A DNA stretch of 64,000 nucleotides from a phage, in the NCBI GenBank assembly GCA_020381345.1, contig GCA_020381345.1_3636.1. One strand, given 5' to 3'. The translations under genes and the position numbers were made by a program. Position 1 is the stretch's first letter. The number at the start of each line of letters is the position of its first letter. The notes under the pieces were generated by a model that was not told where the DNA came from, ran no database searches, and saw only the letters and a list, made by a program, of their open reading frames with translations. Positions 5,126-61,762 of this stretch are shown piece after piece.

Positions 5126-5143
5126 TTTCTTAACTAAACTATC

Positions 5144-5172
5144 AGGGGCTTTAAAAGGTCCCTTTCTTTTTG
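5144..5172 (+). terminator. putative rho-independent terminator
   Basis: Imperfect stem AGGGGC/GTCCCT followed by TTCTTTTTG. Confidence 0.45.
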
Positions 5173-5776
5173 TCTGTATTTCTCCTACCACAAACGGCCC
5201 CACCTGGCAAGTGGAATAATTGACTAGCCATCAATCCCACACACTGTACAAATATACATGTAAAATAGCTATTGCATAATCTTTCATTGTGTGGTAGCAG
5301 GGCCATTTTTACACGTTTTTCCTTCCAAAATTGCACGTAATGCAGCTATTGCACAAAATTTAACCTGATGCATATCTTCAGTGTCTTGTCAACAACTAAA
5401 AATCTTTATAAGTCATACACTTACACAACCACAAAAGCGTGTTCTACGTGAAAAATCGGGTATAACTATAGCCACTAAATTCCAGAATTCACGTAGCGTC
5501 ACCATTCTATAGTCTGCTAAGCATTTATTCCAACCATAGAATAACGGAATAGTCAATACCTGCATAAAATAATTATTCGTTTAAACTGCATAACATAAAT
5601 CAGCCAGGGTGTCAACATTTTTCGTAAACAGTCCGAAATTGTCACGGTAAGTTATCATAAACAGAGAAATCTTTAGTCGTCTAATGTTTACTGTACATTA
5701 CTATACTGACTGGAATCATTAGATGACTAAGAGAAAGATAAGAAACAATTAACAGTCTAATTATATTAACGATAAC

Positions 5777-6051
5777 AATAACAGCGGTTAAAGTCATGGC
5801 GCGACGGAGTCGCGACATAATAACACCGAGTAACCCTCACCCCCGTGAGCGTTGCGAATGTTATTATGCCATGACTAAATCATTTCAACACGTAACTATA
5901 GGCATAACAACATTCCCTCGGTGTTATTATGTCGCTAGTTATTATATAACTGTTAACAATAACGCCTCGGGAATAGTTCTGCCTGCACGATGTTTATAAC
6001 AGCAAGTTATGATCAACATTTCACAGATTATAATAACAGCGGTTAAAGTCA
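5777..6051. repeat. 20-bp direct repeat AATAACAGCGGTTAAAGTCA, two copies
   Basis: Identical 20-mers at 5777-5796 and 6032-6051. Confidence 0.7.
5812..5935. repeat. perfect 19-bp inverted repeat flanking an 86-bp loop
   Basis: GCGACATAATAACACCGAG (5812-5830) is the exact reverse complement of CTCGGTGTTATTATGTCGC (5917-5935). Confidence 0.7.
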
Positions 6052-6709
6052 GGCGTAGAAACAGTGGAAGTGTAAACAGTCAATCATGTAAATGATAAGT
6101 ATGTGAACAGTTATCCATGTAAACTATTAGACATGCAAACAATCAGGTGTGCAAAAGTGTCAAGGGTGTCACCAGTATGTCAGACAAGTTTTCCTCCTCT
6201 TTGTCAAGTGCTGCATGAAAAATTTACAAACTGGTATGGTAGCATTTTTGCGGCCCTGTTTACATTCAGTAATGTATGTATAATCCTTGTTGTGTGGGCG
6301 TTTAGACGTCTAGACGGTTGGAAGTCCACAGGTCAATATCTAATCTATCGGCTGCTAACTATATCCCACACAAATAGTAAGAAATATAATTGTTATGCGT
6401 GTAAACAGTAACTCATGTTATCAATCCCTGTATGGATCGCCAGTGGTGCGCATAATGGGTATTATGTTAAATTGCCAGTAATGATAACTATTCTCACAAT
6501 GATAGGTATTCTCATTCCCCCACACAAGATAGGTTGCAAATGTTGTGCCACTGTGTGAACGGCCTCACCTATTAATTTGCCTCACTGCCTCGATATTTGA
6601 GAATTATTATAAGAATGAGAAGTATTCCCATTTCGTCCGCCTGGCAGCACTCCTGTAGGTCAGGTCAAAATCGGGAGAGAACTGGACCTGTTCAGATATT
6701 TCTGGCTGG

Positions 6710-7894
6710 CTCTTCAGGTCTGTGTGGGAAAAGCCGACCCCTCCGGCGGCGGGGAGGTGGTCAATTAAAAAATTTACGGGGTATATGAAGCGCTCTTCAG
6801 GTAAGGCATGTATTATGGGATGAAACCCTCTTCAGGCAATGATATTTGTGGGTGTGATATTTGCTGGAAAGCCAGATATGACGGGACTCCCGGCGGGGCA
6901 GGGGTAGTACAGACAGGGAAAATATGGGGATGTAGTTGGGTGAATTGATCGGTCAGGTAGGGTATGGAATATGTTACAGGTATGTTAAATATGGAGGGTG
7001 AATATCTGTAGGATTTGTGTGTAAAATCAAAGACTTAAGTGGTGTTGTGGTATTTTCTATAAATAATTCAAGTTTAATAGGTAATATTTGTCCCTATCCA
7101 CTTTGTGTGGTAAACAAATTCAGATGAGATTGGTTTACAAGTGTATACATAATATACAAATTAAAGATACAAGAAACCCCCCTCCCCCTTCGGCTACCAT
7201 TCACCTTTTCCTCTGACTGGTACTTAAACACTTATTCAGACTCTTCAGGTTATCACCCATATATCATATGGCAGTGACTGGTGTCCTCCGGCCCCTCTTT
7301 CGTCACCCGTCCGCTTCGCCATGCTAATGCCATAGCCAAAGGTTCGGTTGTTCACCCTGTTCACTCAGGTGTATCTCCATACCCCTTCAAACCGAAGAGA
7401 ACAGAAAACCCGAATTACTCGGTAAAAGAAAAGAGAAGAACTTAATTTTATCAGGATAGGCAAGAATGTCAAGGCATGACTGCTCACTAAACAAGCAAAC
7501 AGTCATGTGTGGGAGGTAAGTGATTGTGGTTGTAGGAAATTTAGTTGAAAGATGTGTTATAGGTGCTTCCAGCACTTTAGCCGGGCAGCTAATTGTGTGT
7601 CAGTCCAGCGGTTCATCCTCTACTTCACTGAAATCAATGTTCATGGTCTCTTCCCAACCATCGATCTCAGCACAAGAGTGGAGTTCTTTAGGGTTTACTC
7701 CCAAAGCCTCAGCAACAGAGTCTATATTTAACACCTCTGGCAGGTATGATTCATCGAATTCAAGGTAAATCAGGCCACGAGTATTGTCAGCTCCACCAAA
7801 TAGTTCTATCTTCATGAAATCTCCTTCGGAAAATGAGTGTGAACAGGATTATACGTCCCAATGCGCAGGAATTATGCACGTTTGCCTCTTCAGG
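6710..7894 (+). repeat. five same-strand copies of CTCTTCAGG
   Basis: Exact 9-mer at 6710, 6793, 6828, 7241 and 7886; copies at 6710, 6828 and 7886 are followed by TGTGGG and the one at 6793 by TGGG; two are followed by CCGGCGG(C)GGG tracts. Confidence 0.6.
7600..7815 (-). CDS. hypothetical acidic protein (71 aa)
   Basis: ORF track; strongly acidic composition. Confidence 0.45.
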   Translation of the reverse strand: MKIELFGGADNTRGLIYLEFDESYLPEVLNIDSVAEALGVNPKELHSCAEIDGWEETMNIDFSEVEDEPLD

Positions 7895-7933
7895 CCATGC
7901 TTTAGCATGAGGAACCTGTGTGGGCTCGGTGCT

Positions 7934-8146
7934 TCATAGTCTACCACCCCTGAACTCTTCGTGCTCAGGCATAATAGAGAACCAGATATCTACGATGTCT
8001 TCCCACGTTAGGTCATTAGCCTCAGGATCTACCTGGAGCGAAGATGGAGAATCTTCAGAATCGAAGTTTTCCTCTTTCACTGGCTCAGCCAAGGGACATA
8101 TAGTCACTCCTTTTGATGTCTCTTCAGATGCATGTGTGTTGATCAT
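7934..8146 (-). CDS. hypothetical acidic protein (70 aa)
   Basis: C-terminal part of track ORF 7934..8347; ATG at 8144-8146 overlaps the upstream peptide stop as ATGA. Confidence 0.45.
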   Translation of the reverse strand: MINTHASEETSKGVTICPLAEPVKEENFDSEDSPSSLQVDPEANDLTWEDIVDIWFSIMPEHEEFRGGRL

Positions 8147-44438: not shown

Positions 44439-45200
44439 TTAAAGTTCCATAAAGTTTTCTACAGTTTCAATAAATGCTTTATCAGAGAAAGCGTCAACAG
44501 CACCGTTAAACCATACAGGGATCCCGCGATCCTCATATTGATAAAGGTCGCTACGTGAAATGCCACTTCCATCTGCACTCTGCGAATCATACTTGTTTAC
44601 AATCAGCAGTTTTGTTCCTTTACAAGTAGCAGGAAACAATTCCCAGTTAAAATTAATAACTGTGTTAGAACAACCCACTAGGATCACCATATCATTGCTG
44701 GTGAGAGATGTCAACAGGTCATACATGTCTGTATACTTAGGAGCAACCTCGCCGAAGAACACTACATTGGGCTTAACCCAGGTATACTTGCCTGTATCTA
44801 CCTCCGTGTATCCGATATTTTTAATTACATCATTACCTTCAGCATCTTCGTAGGTGATTTCAGGCAAATACCCGTGGACATGTAAAATATCTTCATGTTT
44901 TACACCAGCACGCTCCAGCAAATCATCTACATTGGTGGTAAGGTTGATCACACGACCAGACCAGCGGGAATACCACTCAGCGATCCGAAGATGTGCAAGG
45001 TTAGGATCAACACTGCCCAGAGCTACACGACGTGCATTGTAAAAGTCATGCACCTTATAGTAGTTCTTGGCAAAGGTGTGGATGTTGCACACCTCATCGA
45101 TGCTGAAATTCTCCCACATTGCAGTGCTACCAGATCGGAAGGTGGGAATACCAGATTCTGCGCTCAAACCAGCACCAGAAATAACAATAAGTCGTCGCAT
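44439..45200 (-). CDS. Sir2-family NAD-dependent deacylase / ADP-ribosyltransferase (253 aa)
   Basis: Sirtuin NAD-binding motif GAGLSAESGIPTFR at the N-terminus. Confidence 0.75.
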   Translation of the reverse strand: MRRLIVISGAGLSAESGIPTFRSGSTAMWENFSIDEVCNIHTFAKNYYKVHDFYNARRVALGSVDPNLAHLRIAEWYSRWSGRVINLTTNVDDLLERAGVKHEDILHVHGYLPEITYEDAEGNDVIKNIGYTEVDTGKYTWVKPNVVFFGEVAPKYTDMYDLLTSLTSNDMVILVGCSNTVINFNWELFPATCKGTKLLIVNKYDSQSADGSGISRSDLYQYEDRGIPVWFNGAVDAFSDKAFIETVENFMEL

Positions 45201-45208
45201 AAATGTCC

Positions 45209-45559
45209 TTAGTAGATGTTTTGTTTGATCTCTATTCCAAACTTCTTGAATGAGTCAGCAGCAAGCATAAATTTACGAGCTGCCGATGGATTAGAAGTAT
45301 GCACGAAAATAATCACGTTGTCAATAAGTGGTGGCTTTCCGAATACAAGTTTCTCCTCTAGCGCAGAGAAGCAGTCGTACCCTTCAAGAACTTCACCTAG
45401 ATCATTGTCAAAATACCATTCAGATACGCGTCTGTAGAGCTTTCTCTTATCATTAAGAAAATCCATAAATTCAGAAGAATTCTTTAGCCACAGAGCGTCT
45501 GGGAGTCCATAATCTGACGGATCTCTAAAATCATCAAGCCACACAATCCACTTCTTCAT
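45209..45559 (-). CDS. hypothetical protein (116 aa)
   Basis: Internal ATG overlaps the RNA ligase stop as ATGA. Confidence 0.45.
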   Translation of the reverse strand: MKKWIVWLDDFRDPSDYGLPDALWLKNSSEFMDFLNDKRKLYRRVSEWYFDNDLGEVLEGYDCFSALEEKLVFGKPPLIDNVIIFVHTSNPSAARKFMLAADSFKKFGIEIKQNIY

Positions 45560-46473
45560 TGCATATAGTCCTCGTTGTGGAAATAGCAGTCCAGTATCTC
45601 GCGACGCTCCTGCTCTAATAAGCAATTCCACACATCTTCTGTATAGTTGCTACGAATAAATTTTACCATACCGTAAAACTCCTCGTCAACACGTTTAAAA
45701 ATATCGTCATCCCAAATCTTCCATGCTTTACCTCTCATTACGGCCTTCCGTGCCAAATAGTATGGAGACTTGATCTTCAGCTGCAGGTCATAAGGGTAGT
45801 AAGGCTTACGGATCATATACCCTTCGCCCCTTGTTTCTGCAGCTAATTCTTTTGCATAGCTGAACGGGATTTCACGCACAGTGTGAGGACGTTTTGCACC
45901 AAGGTATTTGGCAATCCCATCTAAAGCTGCTTCTGGTAGCATTATTCCAGAATCATTATATCTGCAACCTATCAAATATGCGCCATGGTCTTCTTGAACA
46001 ATATGCGGATCTGAAGGGTGACAAATTTCAAACATGAATGTCATGTTTTCATTGCCCATAACCTTCTTGATAAGATCTAAATTACCACATTGCTCTTGGA
46101 TGGTTTCCTTTGCAAGGTTACAATATGGAGAATCAAGAGACCCGGTTGTTGAGAACAATAGTTCACCTTTATGAGATGATACCACACCGAGGAATCCGTT
46201 CTTTTTCTCTACCGCAGTAACAAGTTTACTGTCCGGTAGGTTGGTGGAGTTTTCTCCTAAGTTGAATACTTTTGTGAAAGGCCATGCCACAACATTCCCC
46301 TCATTGCCAACAACAATACCTCGGCACTCCAGTAAACGCGGAGACAAATGCCACAGATTGTTGTAGAATACTTTTCTGGCATATTTATAGATCTTTAATC
46401 CAAGATCTGGATAATACCGACTGGTTACAAGACCTTTGTCTACTAGGTCATCTGCATTAAAATACTTCATCAT
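45556..46473 (-). CDS. Rnl1-like RNA ligase
   Basis: Matches recalled T4 Rnl1 in LECRGI, KVFNLGEN and the nucleotidyl-transfer lysine region EKKNGFL; start placed at ATG with RBS GAGGA. Confidence 0.75.
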   Translation of the reverse strand: MMKYFNADDLVDKGLVTSRYYPDLGLKIYKYARKVFYNNLWHLSPRLLECRGIVVGNEGNVVAWPFTKVFNLGENSTNLPDSKLVTAVEKKNGFLGVVSSHKGELLFSTTGSLDSPYCNLAKETIQEQCGNLDLIKKVMGNENMTFMFEICHPSDPHIVQEDHGAYLIGCRYNDSGIMLPEAALDGIAKYLGAKRPHTVREIPFSYAKELAAETRGEGYMIRKPYYPYDLQLKIKSPYYLARKAVMRGKAWKIWDDDIFKRVDEEFYGMVKFIRSNYTEDVWNCLLEQERREILDCYFHNEDYMQ

Positions 46474-46534
46474 ACGTTCCTCATTTGTCATTTTGTCAGT
46501 CTATCCTGCCACACAAATAACCTAGTGTCAACAC

Positions 46535-46563
46535 TTGAAATTAACAAAACAGTTAGGTATACT
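46535..46563 (+). promoter_or_regulatory. sigma70-like promoter
   Basis: TTGAAA, 17-nt spacer, TATACT in the divergent region between RNA ligase and kinase. Confidence 0.5.
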
Positions 46564-46591
46564 ATCATTAAAATTAAAACGGAGGATTGCT

Positions 46592-47002
46592 ATGTCTAAA
46601 ATGCTATATATCGTGCGTGGTCTGCCAGGGTCTGGCAAATCAACACTGGCAAATGCGCTATCTTTAGAAGGTCTGTATCCACATTTTGAGAACGACATGT
46701 TCTGGTATGACGATGACGGCAATTACAACTGGGATGCAAGTAAAGTAACACTCGCAGCAAAATGGTGCAAAGATAACGTAGAAGATATGATGCGTATGGG
46801 ATACGACCGTATCGTGGTAAGTAATACGTTTACAAAAGAAAAACATGTGCAGGAATATGTTGACATGGCAATCAGTCATGGGTATAGTTATACCGTGATC
46901 GTGGTTGAAAACCGCCACGGTAATAAAAGCATTCATGATGTTCCAGACAAGGTTGTGGATCGTATGGAACGCCAGCTTAAAAACTGCATTAAACTTAAAT
47001 GA
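46592..47002 (+). CDS. P-loop kinase, polynucleotide 5'-kinase-like (136 aa)
   Basis: Walker A GLPGSGKST; RBS GGAGG 6 nt before ATG 46592. Confidence 0.6.
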   Translation: MSKMLYIVRGLPGSGKSTLANALSLEGLYPHFENDMFWYDDDGNYNWDASKVTLAAKWCKDNVEDMMRMGYDRIVVSNTFTKEKHVQEYVDMAISHGYSYTVIVVENRHGNKSIHDVPDKVVDRMERQLKNCIKLK

Positions 47003-47009
47003 GGAATGT

Positions 47010-47564
47010 ATGAAATACTTTGTAACAAGCGACACACACTTTCTCCACCAGCGGGTCATGGAGTTTGATTCATGTCAAAAACACAGATCTCAGTATGATC
47101 ACAATCTTGACAGTATGAATGCGGGAATCATCGCCGAGTGGAACTCTGTTGTGTCACCTGCAGACACTGTGTTCCACTTGGGAGATATTGCGTGCACTAA
47201 TGATAAGAATATCAACAAATTACTTCCAGATATTCTAAATATGTTGAACGGACATATTATTCTTGTTCGTGGCAACCATGACACAAGGACGACTGTCAGA
47301 ATTATGAAAGAGTTCGGTCATGAGGTTGTAGATTATTACGAGCTTCGCCACAACAAGAATTTGATCTGTATGAGCCATTACCAGTTTGCAAAGTGGAACA
47401 GAAAGCCTCACGGATCAGTCCAACTGTTCGGTCATGCTCACGGAACCACACAACAGTTGTTTGGCAGGCAGCTTGATGTCGGTTGGGATGTGTGGGGGAG
47501 ACTCTTACCATTAGAAGAGGCATACCGTACTGCAATGAGTTTTGATATTGACAGCAGGGAGTAA
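47010..47564 (+). CDS. calcineurin-like metallophosphoesterase (184 aa)
   Basis: Motifs SDTHF, GDIA and GNHD; track ORF 46905..47564 is an upstream-extended version of the same frame. Confidence 0.6.
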   Translation: MKYFVTSDTHFLHQRVMEFDSCQKHRSQYDHNLDSMNAGIIAEWNSVVSPADTVFHLGDIACTNDKNINKLLPDILNMLNGHIILVRGNHDTRTTVRIMKEFGHEVVDYYELRHNKNLICMSHYQFAKWNRKPHGSVQLFGHAHGTTQQLFGRQLDVGWDVWGRLLPLEEAYRTAMSFDIDSRE

Positions 47565-47611
47565 TCCCTGCTATTTTAAAGAAAATTGCCACACAAGGAG
47601 AATCAGGAGAT

Positions 47612-47962
47612 ATGAAAGATGGGGATAAGCTGCTATATCTTAAAGTCCCCCTTGAAATACTATCTATGTCAAAAGTTTTGAATGACACAACTGGGGAGGT
47701 TGTTGTTCTTGACTTGTATGACAAGATCGTATACTGCTACCTGCACAACTGGTATAAGCTTGGAGGAAATTCACGCTTCACACCAAGCACAAGGAAAATT
47801 GCAGCAGATGTTGGGATAAAGAAAACAAAAGCAGCAGCGTGCGTTAAAACTTTAGAATGTGCAGGAGTGGTTGAAACATCCACACAAGGGAGAGGTAAAA
47901 GATGCACATTTTCCAAAGTTTTGCCACCAGAAAAAGTTATTCGAATGTCAACAACTGGTTAG
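47612..47962 (+). CDS. putative DNA-binding protein (116 aa)
   Basis: HTH-like segment TRKIAADVGIKKTKAAACVKTLECAGVV; sits just upstream of the iteron array. Confidence 0.5.
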   Translation: MKDGDKLLYLKVPLEILSMSKVLNDTTGEVVVLDLYDKIVYCYLHNWYKLGGNSRFTPSTRKIAADVGIKKTKAAACVKTLECAGVVETSTQGRGKRCTFSKVLPPEKVIRMSTTG

Positions 47963-48035
47963 ACCAGTAAAAACTTAAATATCTGTACTATAAGGATTCG
48001 TATGTTTTATGTTCGCTCTGGAACAGAGGTTAGTA

Positions 48036-48121
48036 ACTGTCCGTGATACGGACACTACTGTCCGTCACGCGGACACATCTGCCCGTAATACGGACACTAA
48101 CTGTCCGTGATACGGACACAT
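48036..48121. repeat. four tandem ~21-22-bp iterons, each a GTCCGT-N4-ACGGAC palindrome
   Basis: Units start at 48036, 48057, 48079 and 48101; the third is degenerate (GCCCGT). Confidence 0.75.
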
Positions 48122-48250
48122 AAAGAATATAACTAAAATAACTAAATAATAAAAAATAAAAGATCTAGTACTTATGGTACTAAAGTACATATACTTAACT
48201 TATGTAGAATATACTAGATCCTAAGTACCATGTTTTAAATTTATTACTTA
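48122..48250. other. AT-rich tract with GTAC-containing palindromes (possible DNA unwinding element)
   Basis: About 130 bp of strongly AT-rich sequence right after the iterons, including AGTACTTATGGTACT. Confidence 0.4.
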
Positions 48251-48623
48251 CTATAGGTAGTGTCGGCCCTTCATTGGCACTCGCCTACGAGGGGCGAGAT
48301 GCCGGGCCTCCGTAGTGCACACAATAACAGAAGTGCATACATGCAGGTATGTTAACATGTGTGGTAGCGAAGCGATAGCGCAGGCCAAAGGCCGAGCACT
48401 AATGTGGGCCACCGACGAAAGCTTGCCAGCGCCGTAAGGAGTCGGTTAAGAGTCTCCCGCGCGAGTTTGGATAAAGTTTATGTGTGGAAACGGACAAGGA
48501 GGCCCCTAAATAGCCCCACAGCTATATAAACTATACCAGGTAAGGCAATCGCACCAGTTTGATAGAAAAGCTCGTTACAAAGCGATACAGTGAGTTTTTC
48601 TATAACTTGAAGAGGAGGCAGCT

Positions 48624-49202
48624 ATGAGTCAACGCAAAGATGACCGTGAAAAGATTGCAAAACGTTATCAGAATGAAGAACAGATGGAGAAAACTTTCAA
48701 GTGGAAGCCAGGTTTCCAGCGTAATCATTCTAACGCTCGTGATCGTAAGCATCCGGATAAGTGGTTAACACCGCCAAATGATGGCATTCAGGTTGGTGAT
48801 GAGAAGGAGCTGTCACCTGGAAAAGATGGCAACTACATTCGCACTAAGGAAGCAGGTCCAAAGGATGACAGCTATCTTGTAGATAAGGTTCTTGACGGTG
48901 TTGAGGTAGGTGTTGACACTGCACGAAACCTTTTTCTTGGTTGGTATCGCACAGGGTTTTTCGACATCAAGGCTATTCGTCGTGTTTGTGATATTAAAAA
49001 GTCTGCCTATGATGATGACTCCCTACATCGCACTCTGAGACAATACTCAGAGAGATACGGTCATCCAGTTATCACTCTTGACGATATTAACGAAGTGATG
49101 TATCATGCAGAGGTTGTTGCAGGTAGGTTCGGTGATGCATATCTCGGTATCCTTTCTGCAAAGGATGAGGTAATGTTAAATAAGATTTACTATGAACGCT
49201 GA
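48624..49202 (+). CDS. hypothetical protein (192 aa)
   Basis: ORF with RBS GAAGAGGAGG upstream. Confidence 0.55.
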   Translation: MSQRKDDREKIAKRYQNEEQMEKTFKWKPGFQRNHSNARDRKHPDKWLTPPNDGIQVGDEKELSPGKDGNYIRTKEAGPKDDSYLVDKVLDGVEVGVDTARNLFLGWYRTGFFDIKAIRRVCDIKKSAYDDDSLHRTLRQYSERYGHPVITLDDINEVMYHAEVVAGRFGDAYLGILSAKDEVMLNKIYYER

Positions 49203-49212
49203 GGGGCGATTA

Positions 49213-49401
49213 ATGAACAATCCGGTAGCAAAGAACTGTAATAAGTTCAACAAGTCTGCGATTCACACTGACAGGAAAAAGGGTTGGTTTCCTGACATTG
49301 ACGAGGAGCTTGAGAGTTACTTTGAAGATTTAGTCACCAATGCAGATGAGGTTGCGATTAAAGAATATGCAGACAGGAGGGATAAGGCCGGAATCTGTTG
49401 A
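49213..49401 (+). CDS. hypothetical protein (about 62 aa)
   Basis: Internal ATG at 49213 with RBS GAGGGG. Confidence 0.45.
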   Translation: MNNPVAKNCNKFNKSAIHTDRKKGWFPDIDEELESYFEDLVTNADEVAIKEYADRRDKAGIC

Positions 49402-49426
49402 CAAAAATAATGTTACCTGATAAGAT
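49398..49426 (+). promoter_or_regulatory. sigma70-like promoter
   Basis: TTGACA, 17-nt spacer, TAAGAT. Confidence 0.45.
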
Positions 49427-49477
49427 CTGCAATATGATGTGATACAATTTTAACTTACGAGGTCTACAGGTAATGCT

Positions 49478-49720
49478 ATGTTTAAGGTTAAGCTCGTTTT
49501 TCGTTCCATGAATGAGGATTATTTAGAAGATGAAGGTGAATTTCGTGCACTGGATGATGCAATAGATTTTGCCAACGACTTAGCTTGTATGAATACGGGT
49601 TATGGGTTATGTTGTTGGGATGGTGGTGTTCAGATCGGTGATAGCAAGATCTTCTACTTCTACCCTGAGCCCGATAACAAACAAATTAAGTATGTTTTAT
49701 TTATTTGTGCTTTACAATGA
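49478..49720 (+). CDS. hypothetical protein (80 aa)
   Basis: ORF track. Confidence 0.5.
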   Translation: MFKVKLVFRSMNEDYLEDEGEFRALDDAIDFANDLACMNTGYGLCCWDGGVQIGDSKIFYFYPEPDNKQIKYVLFICALQ

Positions 49721-50499: not shown

Positions 50500-50574
50500 G
50501 CCCTGTTAGCTTAGTGGATAAAGCAGCGGCCTTCTAAGCCGTTGACACTGGTTCGAGTCCAGTACGGGGTGCCA
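50500..50574 (+). tRNA. tRNA-Arg (anticodon TCT)
   Basis: Hand-folded cloverleaf: acceptor GCCCTGT/ACGGGGT, anticodon loop CTTCTAA, T-loop TTCGAGT, encoded CCA. Confidence 0.7.
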
Positions 50575-50704
50575 AGTTCTTTTTAATGTAGCTTACTTTA
50601 GCAGAGTAAATCTTCGGCAAGTGGCGGTAACCACTTTACCGATACCTCATAGTTAGTGGTGAGAACACTAGCTATTTTAAAAAGAATTTAAATATTAGTA
50701 TTTA

Positions 50705-50792
50705 GGTGAGTTAATTCCGTAGGGGTAGCGGGGCAGACTGTAAATCTGTTATCATTGCGATTCGGGTGGTTCGACTCCATCACTCACCACCA
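50705..50792 (+). tRNA. tRNA-Tyr (anticodon GTA), long variable arm
   Basis: Acceptor GGTGAGT/ACTCACC, anticodon loop CTGTAAA, T-loop TTCGACT, CCA; 88 nt. Confidence 0.6.
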
Positions 50793-50906
50793 AATTTATA
50801 TTTTTAAATGCATAAATCATACAGATAATGGCATTGATATTTATCGTCGTTTATACTAGTCACTAACTGCTCGAAAATCAGTGTCATTATCAGTATTGTT
50901 TATAAA

Positions 50907-50997
50907 AGAGGGTAGGGAGCAATGGTGCTCAAGCGGTCTTGAAAACCGTCCCGTTGAGGATTACTCGATGATGGTTCGATTCCATTATCCTCTGCCA
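50907..50997 (+). tRNA. tRNA-Ser (anticodon TGA), type II
   Basis: Acceptor AGAGGGT/ATCCTCT, anticodon loop CTTGAAA, T-loop TTCGATT, CCA; 91 nt. Confidence 0.6.
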
Positions 50998-51095
50998 TAT
51001 TGTTGACCTTGTAATTAAGCGAAAGCCGGAAGCAGAACCGGATTATCAAATGTTACAGTCGTCATCGCCGACTAGCAACATGGTCAACATACTGA

Positions 51096-51192
51096 GCTAG
51101 GTAAGCCCTTTGGCAAGGGCGAGGATTTTTAATCCTGAAAATAGACGAGGTAGTCGTTGAATACATAGGTGGTTCGATTCCATCACCTAGCA
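51096..51192 (+). tRNA. atypical tRNA-like element (97 nt), anticodon uncertain
   Basis: Acceptor GCTAGGT/ACCTAGC, D-arm GCCC/GGGC, T-arm GGTGG-TTCGATT-CCATC, but non-canonical anticodon arm, 29-nt extra arm, A at position 8, no CCA. Confidence 0.35.
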
Positions 51193-51199
51193 CCTTTTT

Positions 51200-51275
51200 G
51201 CTGATGTAGCACAATTGGTAGTGCAATTGATTTGTAATCAATAGGTTGCAGGTTCAAGTCCTGCCATCAGCACCA
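51200..51275 (+). tRNA. tRNA-Thr (anticodon TGT)
   Basis: Acceptor GCTGATG/CATCAGC, anticodon loop TTTGTAA, T-loop TTCAAGT, CCA. Confidence 0.7.
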
Positions 51276-51276
51276 T

Positions 51277-51351
51277 GGCCCTGTAGCTGGAAGGTTCAAG
51301 CAAGCGACTCATAATCGCCAGACGGTGGTTCAATTCCACCCAGGGCCACCA
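51277..51351 (+). tRNA. tRNA-Met or Ile2 (anticodon CAT)
   Basis: Acceptor GGCCCTG/CAGGGCC, anticodon loop CTCATAA, T-arm GGTGG-TTCAATT-CCACC, CCA; D-stem weak. Confidence 0.55.
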
Positions 51352-51362
51352 AATAATGAATA

Positions 51363-51439
51363 CTCCGCGTAGCTCAGCTTGGTAGAGCGCCTGATTTGGG
51401 ATCAGGAGGTCGAGTGTTCGAATCACTCCGTGGAGACCA
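51363..51439 (+). tRNA. tRNA-Pro (anticodon TGG)
   Basis: Acceptor CTCCGCG/CGTGGAG, D-arm GCTC-AGCTTGGTA-GAGC, anticodon loop TTTGGGA, T-loop TTCGAAT, CCA. Confidence 0.7.
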
Positions 51440-61303: not shown

Positions 61304-61762
61304 ATGCTAAAGGTTAAATGTCAAACAAGGTTCAACCTAAAGCGTTTAGATCGCTTCTACAAAGAACTTGTGAGACTTGAAAGTAAAACAATAACCTACG
61401 GCTTTTATGACGAACCTCACCCGTCAGGCTTAAATATGGCAACATTGGCAGCCATTCACAACTTCGGTTGGAACGGGCTGCCTGTTCGCAATTTCATGGA
61501 GACAGCCTTTGCATTTCATAGTACTCAACTACAGACCTTGACAGAAAAATTGTTGAGAGCTATGGCTAGAGGATCAAGTGCAGAGGCTATTCTTAAGCAG
61601 ATGGGGGACACAGGGGCCAAAGCTATCCAGTTTGTTATTGAGGCTGGGCAGTTTAGTAATCCTACTGTTAGTGAGCAGTGGGCACAAGAAAAAGGCTTCA
61701 ACGAGGCTATGCGGCATTACGATGTGCTGCTTGAATCTGCAACCTTTAAAATCGGACAGTAA
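61304..61762 (+). CDS. hypothetical structural protein (152 aa)
   Basis: ATG 61304 with RBS GAGGG; upstream TGTGGTAAAAT extended -10-like element. Confidence 0.45.
   Translation: MLKVKCQTRFNLKRLDRFYKELVRLESKTITYGFYDEPHPSGLNMATLAAIHNFGWNGLPVRNFMETAFAFHSTQLQTLTEKLLRAMARGSSAEAILKQMGDTGAKAIQFVIEAGQFSNPTVSEQWAQEKGFNEAMRHYDVLLESATFKIGQ

Follow-up and report, generated by a model that had tools for sequence, protein, structure and literature searches.

A conserved structured non-coding element next to the iterons of rV5-like coliphages and of 13-kb Escherichia coli plasmids

Gene order and conservation at the phage locus

The window, a stretch of 64,000 nt of phage DNA, is assigned by its sequence matches to an rV5-like coliphage (Vequintavirus), a member of a widely used therapeutic and typing group. 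A megablast search with 47900-48700 gave matches of 90-98% identity in 119 phage records, virtually all of them Vequintavirus (rV5-like E. coli myoviruses), and the element described below is conserved in these records. Records named "Campylobacter phage" are among these matches and have the same sequence there. The gene order in annotated relatives starts with an RNA ligase gene on the minus strand, followed on the plus strand by genes for a polynucleotide kinase, a phosphoesterase and a protein of 116 aa annotated as "transcriptional regulator / replication initiation protein". After a gap of ~660 bp come the gene for a hypothetical protein of 192 aa, small genes and a cluster of tRNAs. The features of the window in and around this gap are as follows.

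47548..47577, + strand: sigma-70-type promoter-like site, TTGACA-18-TATTTT (10/12 match), 5′ of the winged-helix gene
47612..47962, + strand: gene for the 116-aa winged-helix (wHTH) protein, PHROG 12838 "replication initiation protein" (E = 1e-79)
48034..48119, + strand: four iterons, TAACTGTCCGTGATACGGACAC, at a spacing of 21-22 bp, read from the sequence
48120..48255, no strand assigned: AT-rich tract with GATC sites and inverted repeats, GC 0.325
48256..48610, + strand: the whole conserved structured element, with borders refined by comparison with relatives
48624..49202, + strand: gene for the 192-aa protein with its Shine-Dalgarno (SD) sequence at 48612-48618, PHROG 12226, a family to which no function is assigned

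The site equivalent to the promoter-like sequence is annotated in the rV5 record as "Sigma70-type promoter; P76", and no terminator-like site was found in 47500-49500. A candidate phage promoter motif directly 5′ of the element was rejected; its sole other match sits within a coding region. The 116-aa wHTH protein, whose matches to Pfam HTH_36 and DUF6945 fall slightly under the cut-offs, is a putative origin-binding or replication-initiation protein, and the AT-rich tract 48120..48255 is a putative DNA-unwinding region. Matches to DnaA boxes were at chance level only. To our knowledge, the replication origin of rV5-like phages is still unmapped.

A preliminary description had drawn attention to 48251-48620 as a GC-rich segment between the iteron region and the next gene that lacks ORFs of 60 aa or more and might be a structured RNA. 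The position and composition hold: the longest ORF, on the minus strand at 48251-48412, encodes 53 aa, the next two encode 41 aa and 40 aa, and the GC content is 0.47-0.535 over 48200-48599, as against 0.325 in the AT-rich tract (48100-48299) and ~0.40-0.44 in the flanking genes. Some records annotate small ORFs here (bas56_0214 and bas56_0215 of AlexBoehm; ORF 78 of rV5). The element shows neither a conserved reading frame nor a third-position bias: its 85 variable columns are distributed 26/28/31 over the codon phases, with no codon periodicity, and its small ORFs match no protein family.

The most informative relative is L003, a metagenomic sequence encoding a 192-aa protein 84% identical to that of the window. 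There, the wHTH gene, the iterons and the AT-rich tract are swapped for unrelated sequence, and identity over the upstream 650 bp is 41-57%. In their place, L003 has its own set: a weakly HTH_36-like protein, five different iterons and then an A-rich tract. Similarity returns abruptly at GTCGGCCC (~48262) and reaches the start codon. The element is 84% identical between the two phages (88% in its 5′ half and 95% in its 3′ hairpin), on par with the flanking coding genes at 85-88%. Conservation equal to that of the coding flanks, together with the sharp boundary, argues against a chance spacer. The L003 element also carries frame-breaking -1 and +1 indels. These data support the view that 48256-48610 is a conserved structured non-coding element, and neither spacer DNA nor small genes.

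Copies of the element in 13-kb E. coli plasmids

A sensitive blastn search of E. coli genomes and plasmids returned partial matches of ~85% identity, located in unannotated gaps of ~13-kb circular plasmids (for example CP020521 and CP035869). One plasmid record of 39.6 kb is a trimer of the ~13-kb unit. The plasmids encode an HK97-type major capsid protein, a Dit-like tail protein, a tail-completion protein, a 706-aa tape measure and small proteins, as well as a ~300-aa (303-aa) HTH_36/MarR-like protein that may, from its sequence, be the Rep protein. None of their ORFs has the length needed for a portal or a terminase large subunit; after the tape measure, the longest is 348 aa. The tail-completion protein is 45% identical to the window product near 61310-61732, and the longest phage matches of the tape measure are Vequintavirus tape measures, at 25% identity. 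No close phage relative of the capsid protein was found, the best match being 22% identical. The plasmid family is limited to E. coli and common: the capsid-protein clusters are 82-99% identical, one of them comprises 441 member sequences, and almost all are on 13-14 kb contigs. Because the plasmids have capsid and tail genes and no terminase or portal, we infer that they are satellites of rV5-like phages. Homology between the phage wHTH protein and the 303-aa Rep-like protein was considered and rejected; the phage protein matches a 128-aa wHTH protein of some plasmids only weakly, over 54 aa. Our literature searches on satellites, origins and non-coding RNAs of rV5 and Vequintavirus returned nothing about the element or the plasmids.

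In each plasmid, ~2.3 kb are non-coding. This gap holds iterons, then a short AT-rich stretch and a G/C-rich hairpin, and then the element, oriented as in the phage; strong sigma-70-like promoters and an operon with the Rep-like gene come next. No convincing promoter was found directly 5′ of the element in the plasmids, and the only antisense promoter-like site, a 9/12 match, is in plasmid L011. The plasmid iterons, read in L011, L019, L020 and L022, number five or six at 23-bp spacing and are of several sequence types. Thus, at least five different iteron sets lie beside the element, two in phages (the window and L003) and at least three in plasmids. In every replicon examined, the element lies immediately to the right of the iterons in a constant orientation, and the genes downstream differ. 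Those of the phage and the plasmids are unrelated, and the 192-aa gene is present only in Vequintavirus and L003 and is missing from the plasmids. As the iterons differ but always precede the element, the iteron array is its constant neighbor.

The plasmid elements are longer than that of the phage (400-650 nt) because they contain between two and five additional hairpin cassettes with YTGTGTGGG at the borders of each. The commonest cassette consists of three abutting hairpins of ~41-45 nt; it can lie either way round, and is also found elsewhere between plasmid genes. Five Vequintavirus genomes have one copy, bordered by an 8-nt duplication, CCTACAGG, at a site that is empty in the window. 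From these other sites, the two orientations and the flanking duplication, the cassettes look like tiny mobile insertions that are tolerated by the element outside its conserved core.

The distribution of the element appears narrow in the collections searched. Pattern scans of IMG/VR for homologues returned one contig only, two scans of GTDB species genomes returned none, and a metagenome scan yielded six contigs of the same two kinds, phage and plasmid.

Predicted fold and its conservation

The whole segment folds on the + strand with a predicted energy of -123.5 kcal/mol (z = -2.98), and none of 100 shuffled sequences was as stable. The - strand (-116 kcal/mol, z = -2.58) was also more stable than all 100 shuffles, though its fold is somewhat less favorable than that of the + strand. 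The parts of the predicted fold are the following.

48258..48268, + strand: 5′ strand TAGTGTCGGCC of the closing helix P1, predicted by RNAalifold to pair with GGCCGAGCACTA at 48390-48401
48275..48304, + strand: hairpin H1, TGGCACTCGCC / TACGAGG / GGCGAG-A-TGCCG, from folding
48318..48363, + strand: hairpin H2, CACACA...TGTGTG with the apical part UGCA-UACA-UGCA, from folding and alignment
48412..48445, + strand: hairpin H5, 34 nt, with arms CCGAC/GTCGG around GAAAGCTTGCCAGCGCCGTAAGGA, from the alignment
48450..48463, + strand: conserved motif GAGTCTCCCGCGCG, whose CUCC (48455-48458) is predicted to be able to pair with the SD sequence at 48612-48618
48459..48546, + strand: long AU-rich helix around a hairpin whose loop, CCCTAAATA (48504-48512), is conserved, from the alignment fold
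48556..48607, + strand: 3′ hairpin of ~19 pairs, three of them G-U, from the alignment fold

The hairpin CTCGCC-TACGAGG-GGCGAG quoted in the preliminary description is present at 48280-48298 and forms the tip of the longer H1. This 30-nt hairpin (48275-48304) has a predicted energy of -19.3 kcal/mol (z = -5.7), reached by none of 200 shuffles. Between the phage (TGGCACTCGCC...GGCGAGATGCCG) and plasmid L011 (TGTCACTCTCC...GGAGAGATGACG), two of its G-C pairs are replaced by U-A through double changes, and the bulged A and the predicted fold are unchanged. In H2, an 18-nt deletion in two phages restores a perfect CACACATG/CATGTGTG stem, and an A-U pair is replaced by G-C in L003. In the predicted helix P1, 96% of the cells are paired, and a U-A pair is changed to U-G in three of the 10 phages.

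In H5, the 24-nt interior, GAAAGCTTGCCAGCGCCGKAAGGA, is invariant between the phage and type-1 plasmids except for one U/G position. The arms read CCGAC/GTCGG in the phage; type-1 plasmids have CTGCC/GGCAG and type-2 plasmids GTCCGGAT/ATCCGGAC. The three versions pair fully and are exactly 34 nt long. In the alignment of phage and type-1 sequences, two pairs are changed on both sides, and neither the covariation score nor the percentage of paired cells was reached in any of 500 shuffles; the decisive comparisons involve three lineages (phage, plasmid type 1 and type 2) and hence few independent events. Within the phage clade alone, the single double change is not significant, as shuffled alignments score equally. 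Covariation, one of the checks proposed for the segment, thus exceeds that of all shuffles for H5 across phage and type-1 plasmids (0/500) and is not significant in the phages by themselves. An invariant interior within co-varying arms points to a stem-loop and not to a palindromic operator for a protein, which would show the reverse. As both the type-1 and type-2 H5 occur with the same iterons (L022 versus L024 and L025), the loop type is uncoupled from the iteron type, and it follows that the cognate initiator does not read the loop. Only chance-level 8- to 10-mers complementary to the H5 loop, as candidates for kissing or antisense pairing, were found in the phage window and the plasmids.

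A covariance model of the H5 region detects a single copy in the 64-kb window and retrieves type-1 plasmids with E below 1e-17; type-2 plasmids are marginal (E ~0.1), their elements being recognized by the flanks alone. A blastn search with a type-2 plasmid query returned no phage counterpart of the core. In other genera that resemble Vequintavirinae, the syntenic regions (Mydovirus KpS11 and Salmonella phage R7) have no comparable gap and no match to the covariance model.

The motif GAGTCTCCCGCGCG is shared by the phages, the type-1 plasmids and three plasmids of type 2 (L021, L033 and L034); in L024 and L025, also of type 2, its version is divergent (GGGATTCCGCGCG). Both the single-sequence and the alignment folds predict pairing of GUCUCC (48453-48458) with GGAGGC (48613-48618). 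One position of this anti-SD helix is occupied by U-G, C-G and A-U pairs and is unpaired in three of 10 sequences. The AU-rich helix has 19 pairs, with 94.7% of the cells paired; nine pairs vary on one side in a wobble-compatible manner, and the loop motif CC(C)TAAAT is kept in the plasmids. In the 3′ hairpin, 98.9% of the cells are paired, with changes from C-G to U-G and from G-U to G-C, and its predicted 12-nt loop lies inside a 41-nt stretch that is invariant among the first three sequences compared. Variation in these two helices is thus almost solely between wobble and Watson-Crick pairs (95-99% paired).

The variation also distinguishes the strands. About 10 invariant G-U pairs and the wobble-to-Watson-Crick polymorphisms are on the + strand, and most one-sided changes preserve pairing on this strand only. 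Among minority variants at mostly Watson-Crick pairs, 14 pairs become G-U versus eight A-C, a modest asymmetry, and one measured on a structure predicted from the + strand. The + strand is the sense strand for all flanking genes, and the RNA-like strand is G-rich (GC skew +0.18). With a sigma-70 promoter-like site upstream and no terminator, the element should be included in early transcripts. The wobble pairs, the gene orientation, the promoter and the lack of a terminator together suggest RNA as the most economical reading of the folded molecule. The same covariation would be satisfied by single-stranded DNA exposed at the origin, if it were folded. The proposal made from the sequence alone is thus supported in part: the element is conserved, structured and non-coding, with compensatory changes in two hairpins, and may be RNA. 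Its links to an origin module and to plasmids went beyond that proposal.

A covariance-model scan, which had also been suggested, placed the element in no known family. At the gathering threshold, Rfam 15 reports only tRNAs in the whole window. When 4227 models were run on 47900-48800 with E up to 10, only rli43 (26 bits versus a threshold of 100, mostly in the AT-rich tract) and mir-154 were returned. A visual likeness to RNase P RNA and to the type I-E CRISPR repeat of E. coli was dropped because Infernal reports neither family.

Interpretation and comparison with known systems

The feature is real, and we infer its mechanism. We propose, with about even confidence, that, in rV5-like phages, the segment is a structured RNA module of ~350 nt within the replication-control region. 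Rightward transcripts would probably run from the sigma-70 promoter 5′ of the wHTH gene through the iterons and the AT-rich tract. The 5′ part of the RNA may form a domain closed by the long-range helix and holding H1, H2 and small hairpins. The two-tier 34-nt H5 with its invariant purine-rich interior would follow, and then GAGUCUCCCGCGCG as a single-stranded motif. The 3′ part would consist of the AU-rich long helix, which presents the CCCUAAAU loop, and of the 3′ hairpin ahead of the ribosome-binding site of the next gene. As a guess at the mechanism, we prefer an origin-proximal transcript that would activate or prime replication in cis. Alternatively, the RNA might couple replication control to downstream expression, for example through pairing of the CUCC motif with the SD sequence. 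Such a link to translation would not be the whole story, as the plasmids keep the motif without the 192-aa gene. The plasmids may carry the element because they are satellites needing the same phage or host factor. We know of no structured RNA needed by iteron-type origins, and of no direct precedent for such a mechanism.

A different folded molecule is conceivable, though unlikely in our estimation: single-stranded DNA. Once the AT-rich tract has opened, the displaced + strand, the lagging-strand template of a rightward fork, would fold into a signal for priming or primosome assembly (ssi) by a phage or host primase, as do the G4-type and phiX-type signals and ssiA/ssiB of RSF1010. The fixed place and orientation to the right of the iterons and the AT-rich tract in every replicon examined fit such a signal, the folded strand is the one that it would use, and co-varying stems with conserved loops suit DNA hairpins equally. 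The element also contains GCGAAGC at 48368-48374, which we take to be the unusually stable DNA mini-hairpin of ssDNA-phage origins. However, the ~10 G-U pairs, of which the 3′ hairpin has three and the AU-rich helix has many, would be G-T in DNA and weaken the hairpins. Moreover, known ssi signals span ~40-140 nt, well below the 350-650 nt of the element, and a region co-oriented with the flanking genes without an upstream terminator would be transcribed anyway.

Somewhat less probable is a previously unknown RNA, acting in trans or in cis, that rV5-like phages and their plasmid satellites would need for handling by the same machinery, be it a replisome-loading or packaging cofactor (pRNA-like) or an anti-defence decoy. 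The H5 interior might then serve as the recognition surface, and type-1 and type-2 plasmids might each correspond to a helper lineage of their own.

The element ends 10 nt ahead of the SD sequence of the 192-aa gene, and its 3′ hairpin is the best conserved part. These facts, and the predicted GUCUCC/GGAGGC pairing with three pair types at one position, would agree with an ordinary long 5′ leader that regulates how well the mRNA is translated or how stable it is, for instance with CUCC masking the SD sequence, and has no role at an origin. A leader alone is nevertheless improbable. The plasmids retain the element without the 192-aa gene, and strong promoter-like sites lie between it and their downstream operon. 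The element is thus not constantly 5′ of one gene family in one transcript, as a riboswitch or cis-acting leader would be. In addition, the variable anti-SD pair is broken in three of 10 phages, and CUCC/GGAG complementarity is common by chance.

We consider it slightly more improbable still that the segment is a duplex DNA site for a protein of the helper phage, such as a packaging (pac) site with the TGTGTGG/ATGTGG direct repeats as binding units, copied by terminase-less plasmids that need an rV5-like helper for packaging or activation. The plasmids do lack an ORF the size of a terminase or portal and encode distant homologues of Vequintavirus tail proteins, and this non-coding block is by far the closest likeness between phage and plasmids (~85% identity, with 24 nt identical). 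TGTGTGG/ATGTGG is repeated with a constant orientation in the phage (48358, 48403 and 48481) and in all plasmid versions. On the other hand, compensatory changes in the stems with invariant loops are not expected of a duplex site, which would be conserved independently of intramolecular pairing; this is not the pattern in H1 or in H5, whose arms compensate around an invariant loop. The bulged A is kept in H1, and type-2 plasmids swap H5 for an unrelated sequence of the same shape. TGTGTGG is not strand-enriched in the window (15 versus 14 occurrences), and the extra motif copies of the plasmids flank hairpin cassettes and may therefore be target duplications. The start positions of the phage records are arbitrary.

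Small protein genes (31 aa and 56 aa in some relatives) or a chance GC-rich spacer are very improbable: some records annotate ORFs here and stop-free stretches of 50-80 codons exist in several frames, but these are not kept in L003 or Aya, the codon phases and indels are those of non-coding DNA, no family matches, and the plasmid homologues are broken by insertions of many lengths.

If the structured RNA module is the right reading, the element founds a new structured RNA family in rV5-like coliphages, points to their origin, and indicates that RNA, or a folded strand, can be part of an iteron-type origin. A common family of 13-kb E. coli plasmids, undescribed as far as literature searches show, also comes to light. 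The element is the strongest link of these plasmids to the phage, and offers a handle on the helper-satellite relationship and on what a satellite must copy.

Among known systems, GOLLD, ROOL and similar RNAs are also large, conserved, multi-hairpin and borne by phages or mobile elements; the element differs from them in its lack of an Rfam match, its narrow range (E. coli phages and plasmids) and its linkage to iterons. A non-coding RNA locus of a phage of the same subfamily is pseudo-ToxI of the rV5-related phage PhiTE, in which a tandem 36-nt repeat mimics a type III antitoxin (PMC3475682). It is likewise modular or repeat-like and gives a precedent for an anti-defence RNA, but differs from the element as described there (PMC3475682): the element has no tandem repeat, no similarity to ToxI and no Rfam ToxI match. 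The cos site and late promoters of P2 and P4 offer a parallel of another kind, in that a small replicon lacking packaging enzymes has a non-coding block nearly identical to one in a large phage of the same host. For P4, these sites are duplex DNA, whereas the element has co-varying stems, which argue against a simple site of this type, and invariant loops; the putative tie between helper and satellite comes here from gene content alone.

The two closest parallels are found at origins. Like ssi signals, the element has one-strand hairpins beside iterons and an AT-rich region: they adjoin the putative unwinding region on its right, and the + strand is favored. The order of iterons, AT-rich region and ssi hairpins in RSF1010 oriV is the same as here. 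The ssi signals are distinguished by their size (~40-140 nt) and few wobble pairs, in contrast to the 350-650 nt, the many G-U pairs and the co-oriented transcribed region of the element. ColE1 has no initiator or iterons and its origin is at the 3′ end of RNA II, whereas iterons, an AT-rich tract and, in the phage, a gene for a wHTH initiator-like protein lie 5′ of the element, which has no sequence or Rfam similarity to RNA II. What the element would share with ColE1 RNA II and with the T7 and T4 oriF/oriG transcripts is a stem-loop transcript of several hundred nt at an origin, whose folding would matter in cis for initiation. By analogy, then, the element seems to resemble the origin-associated RNAs (ColE1 RNA II and the T7/T4 origin transcripts) or the ssi signals, as a member of neither group.

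Plasmids of ~13 kb with their own copies of the element

Circular E. coli plasmids of ~13 kb, which carry their own copies of the element, a conserved hairpin-rich non-coding segment, form a common family (L011, L012, L019-L022, L024-L027 and L032-L038; for example, NZ_CP020521.1, NZ_CP035869.1, CP148565.1 and CP134895.1). One plasmid capsid-protein cluster comprises 441 member sequences. The plasmids have an iteron-type replicon and code for HK97-like capsid, Dit-like, tail-completion and tape-measure proteins, while neither a terminase nor a portal is encoded. Published descriptions of this family were not found in literature searches. The plasmids probably represent phage satellites, with rV5-like phages as their helpers.

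Among the plasmids, the phage-type 5′ hairpin of the element, H1, is present only in NZ_CP020521.1 (L011, 12700-13150, minus strand), in which an additional insert of ~480 bp separates the iterons from the element. This insert contains the palindromic repeat TATCAACATATCAAT-N-TGATATA three times, and the 5′ end of the element region of this plasmid looks like a recombinant. Some plasmids encode an additional winged-helix (wHTH) protein:

L033, 485-871: additional wHTH protein, 128 aa
L034, 935-1321: additional wHTH protein, 128 aa

The similarity of this protein to the 116-aa origin-binding-like protein of the phage is weak (26% identity over 54 aa), with an E value of 1e-6 that applies to that one comparison alone.

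A three-hairpin cassette

A cassette of 41-45 nt consists of three abutting hairpins, namely a GC-rich hairpin followed by TTTAGCT-NNNN-AGCTAAA and a third hairpin. Examples of its locations are as follows:

L028 (phage nomine), 1501-1549: phage copy; the corresponding position in the window, ~6650 (minus strand), is an empty site
L021, 6206, 9933 and 12235: plasmid copies
L025, 9062: plasmid copy

The cassette occurs in 5 of the 119 Vequintavirus genomes, accompanied by an 8-nt duplication, CCTACAGG, at a location that is empty in the window. In the plasmids, it is dispersed in intergenic regions in both orientations and, within their copies of the element, is placed between YTGTGTGGG repeats. 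The cassette behaves like a tiny mobile insertion.

Related records and other regions of the window

Eighteen "Campylobacter phage" records from a phage collection (MG0656xx) are 92-97% identical to the rV5-like E. coli phage of the window over the compared region, and are presumably mislabelled or contaminant assemblies.

Three further regions were noted in the window:

5131-8124: second large stretch (~3 kb) with almost no genes annotated in relatives
44439-47564: RNA-repair-type gene set
50500-51439: tRNA cluster

The gene-poor stretch contains numerous short direct repeats, such as GACACAAT and TTGACACAA, together with promoter-like sites. Early promoters could be clustered here, or the stretch could act in cis in some other way.

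In the tRNA cluster, one tRNA-like gene (51096-51194) is unusually long at 97-99 nt. ARAGORN assigns it a 4-base anticodon (atcc), its Rfam score is weak (35.5 bits) and a relative has it annotated as tRNA-Lys; it may be an intron-containing or pseudo-tRNA. One further tRNA was placed at 50907-50997 by ARAGORN but at 50705-50789 by Rfam. The RNA-repair-type set immediately precedes the origin-like module, lies close to the tRNA genes and comprises a Sir2-like protein, a T4 RnlA-like RNA ligase, a polynucleotide kinase and a metallophosphoesterase.
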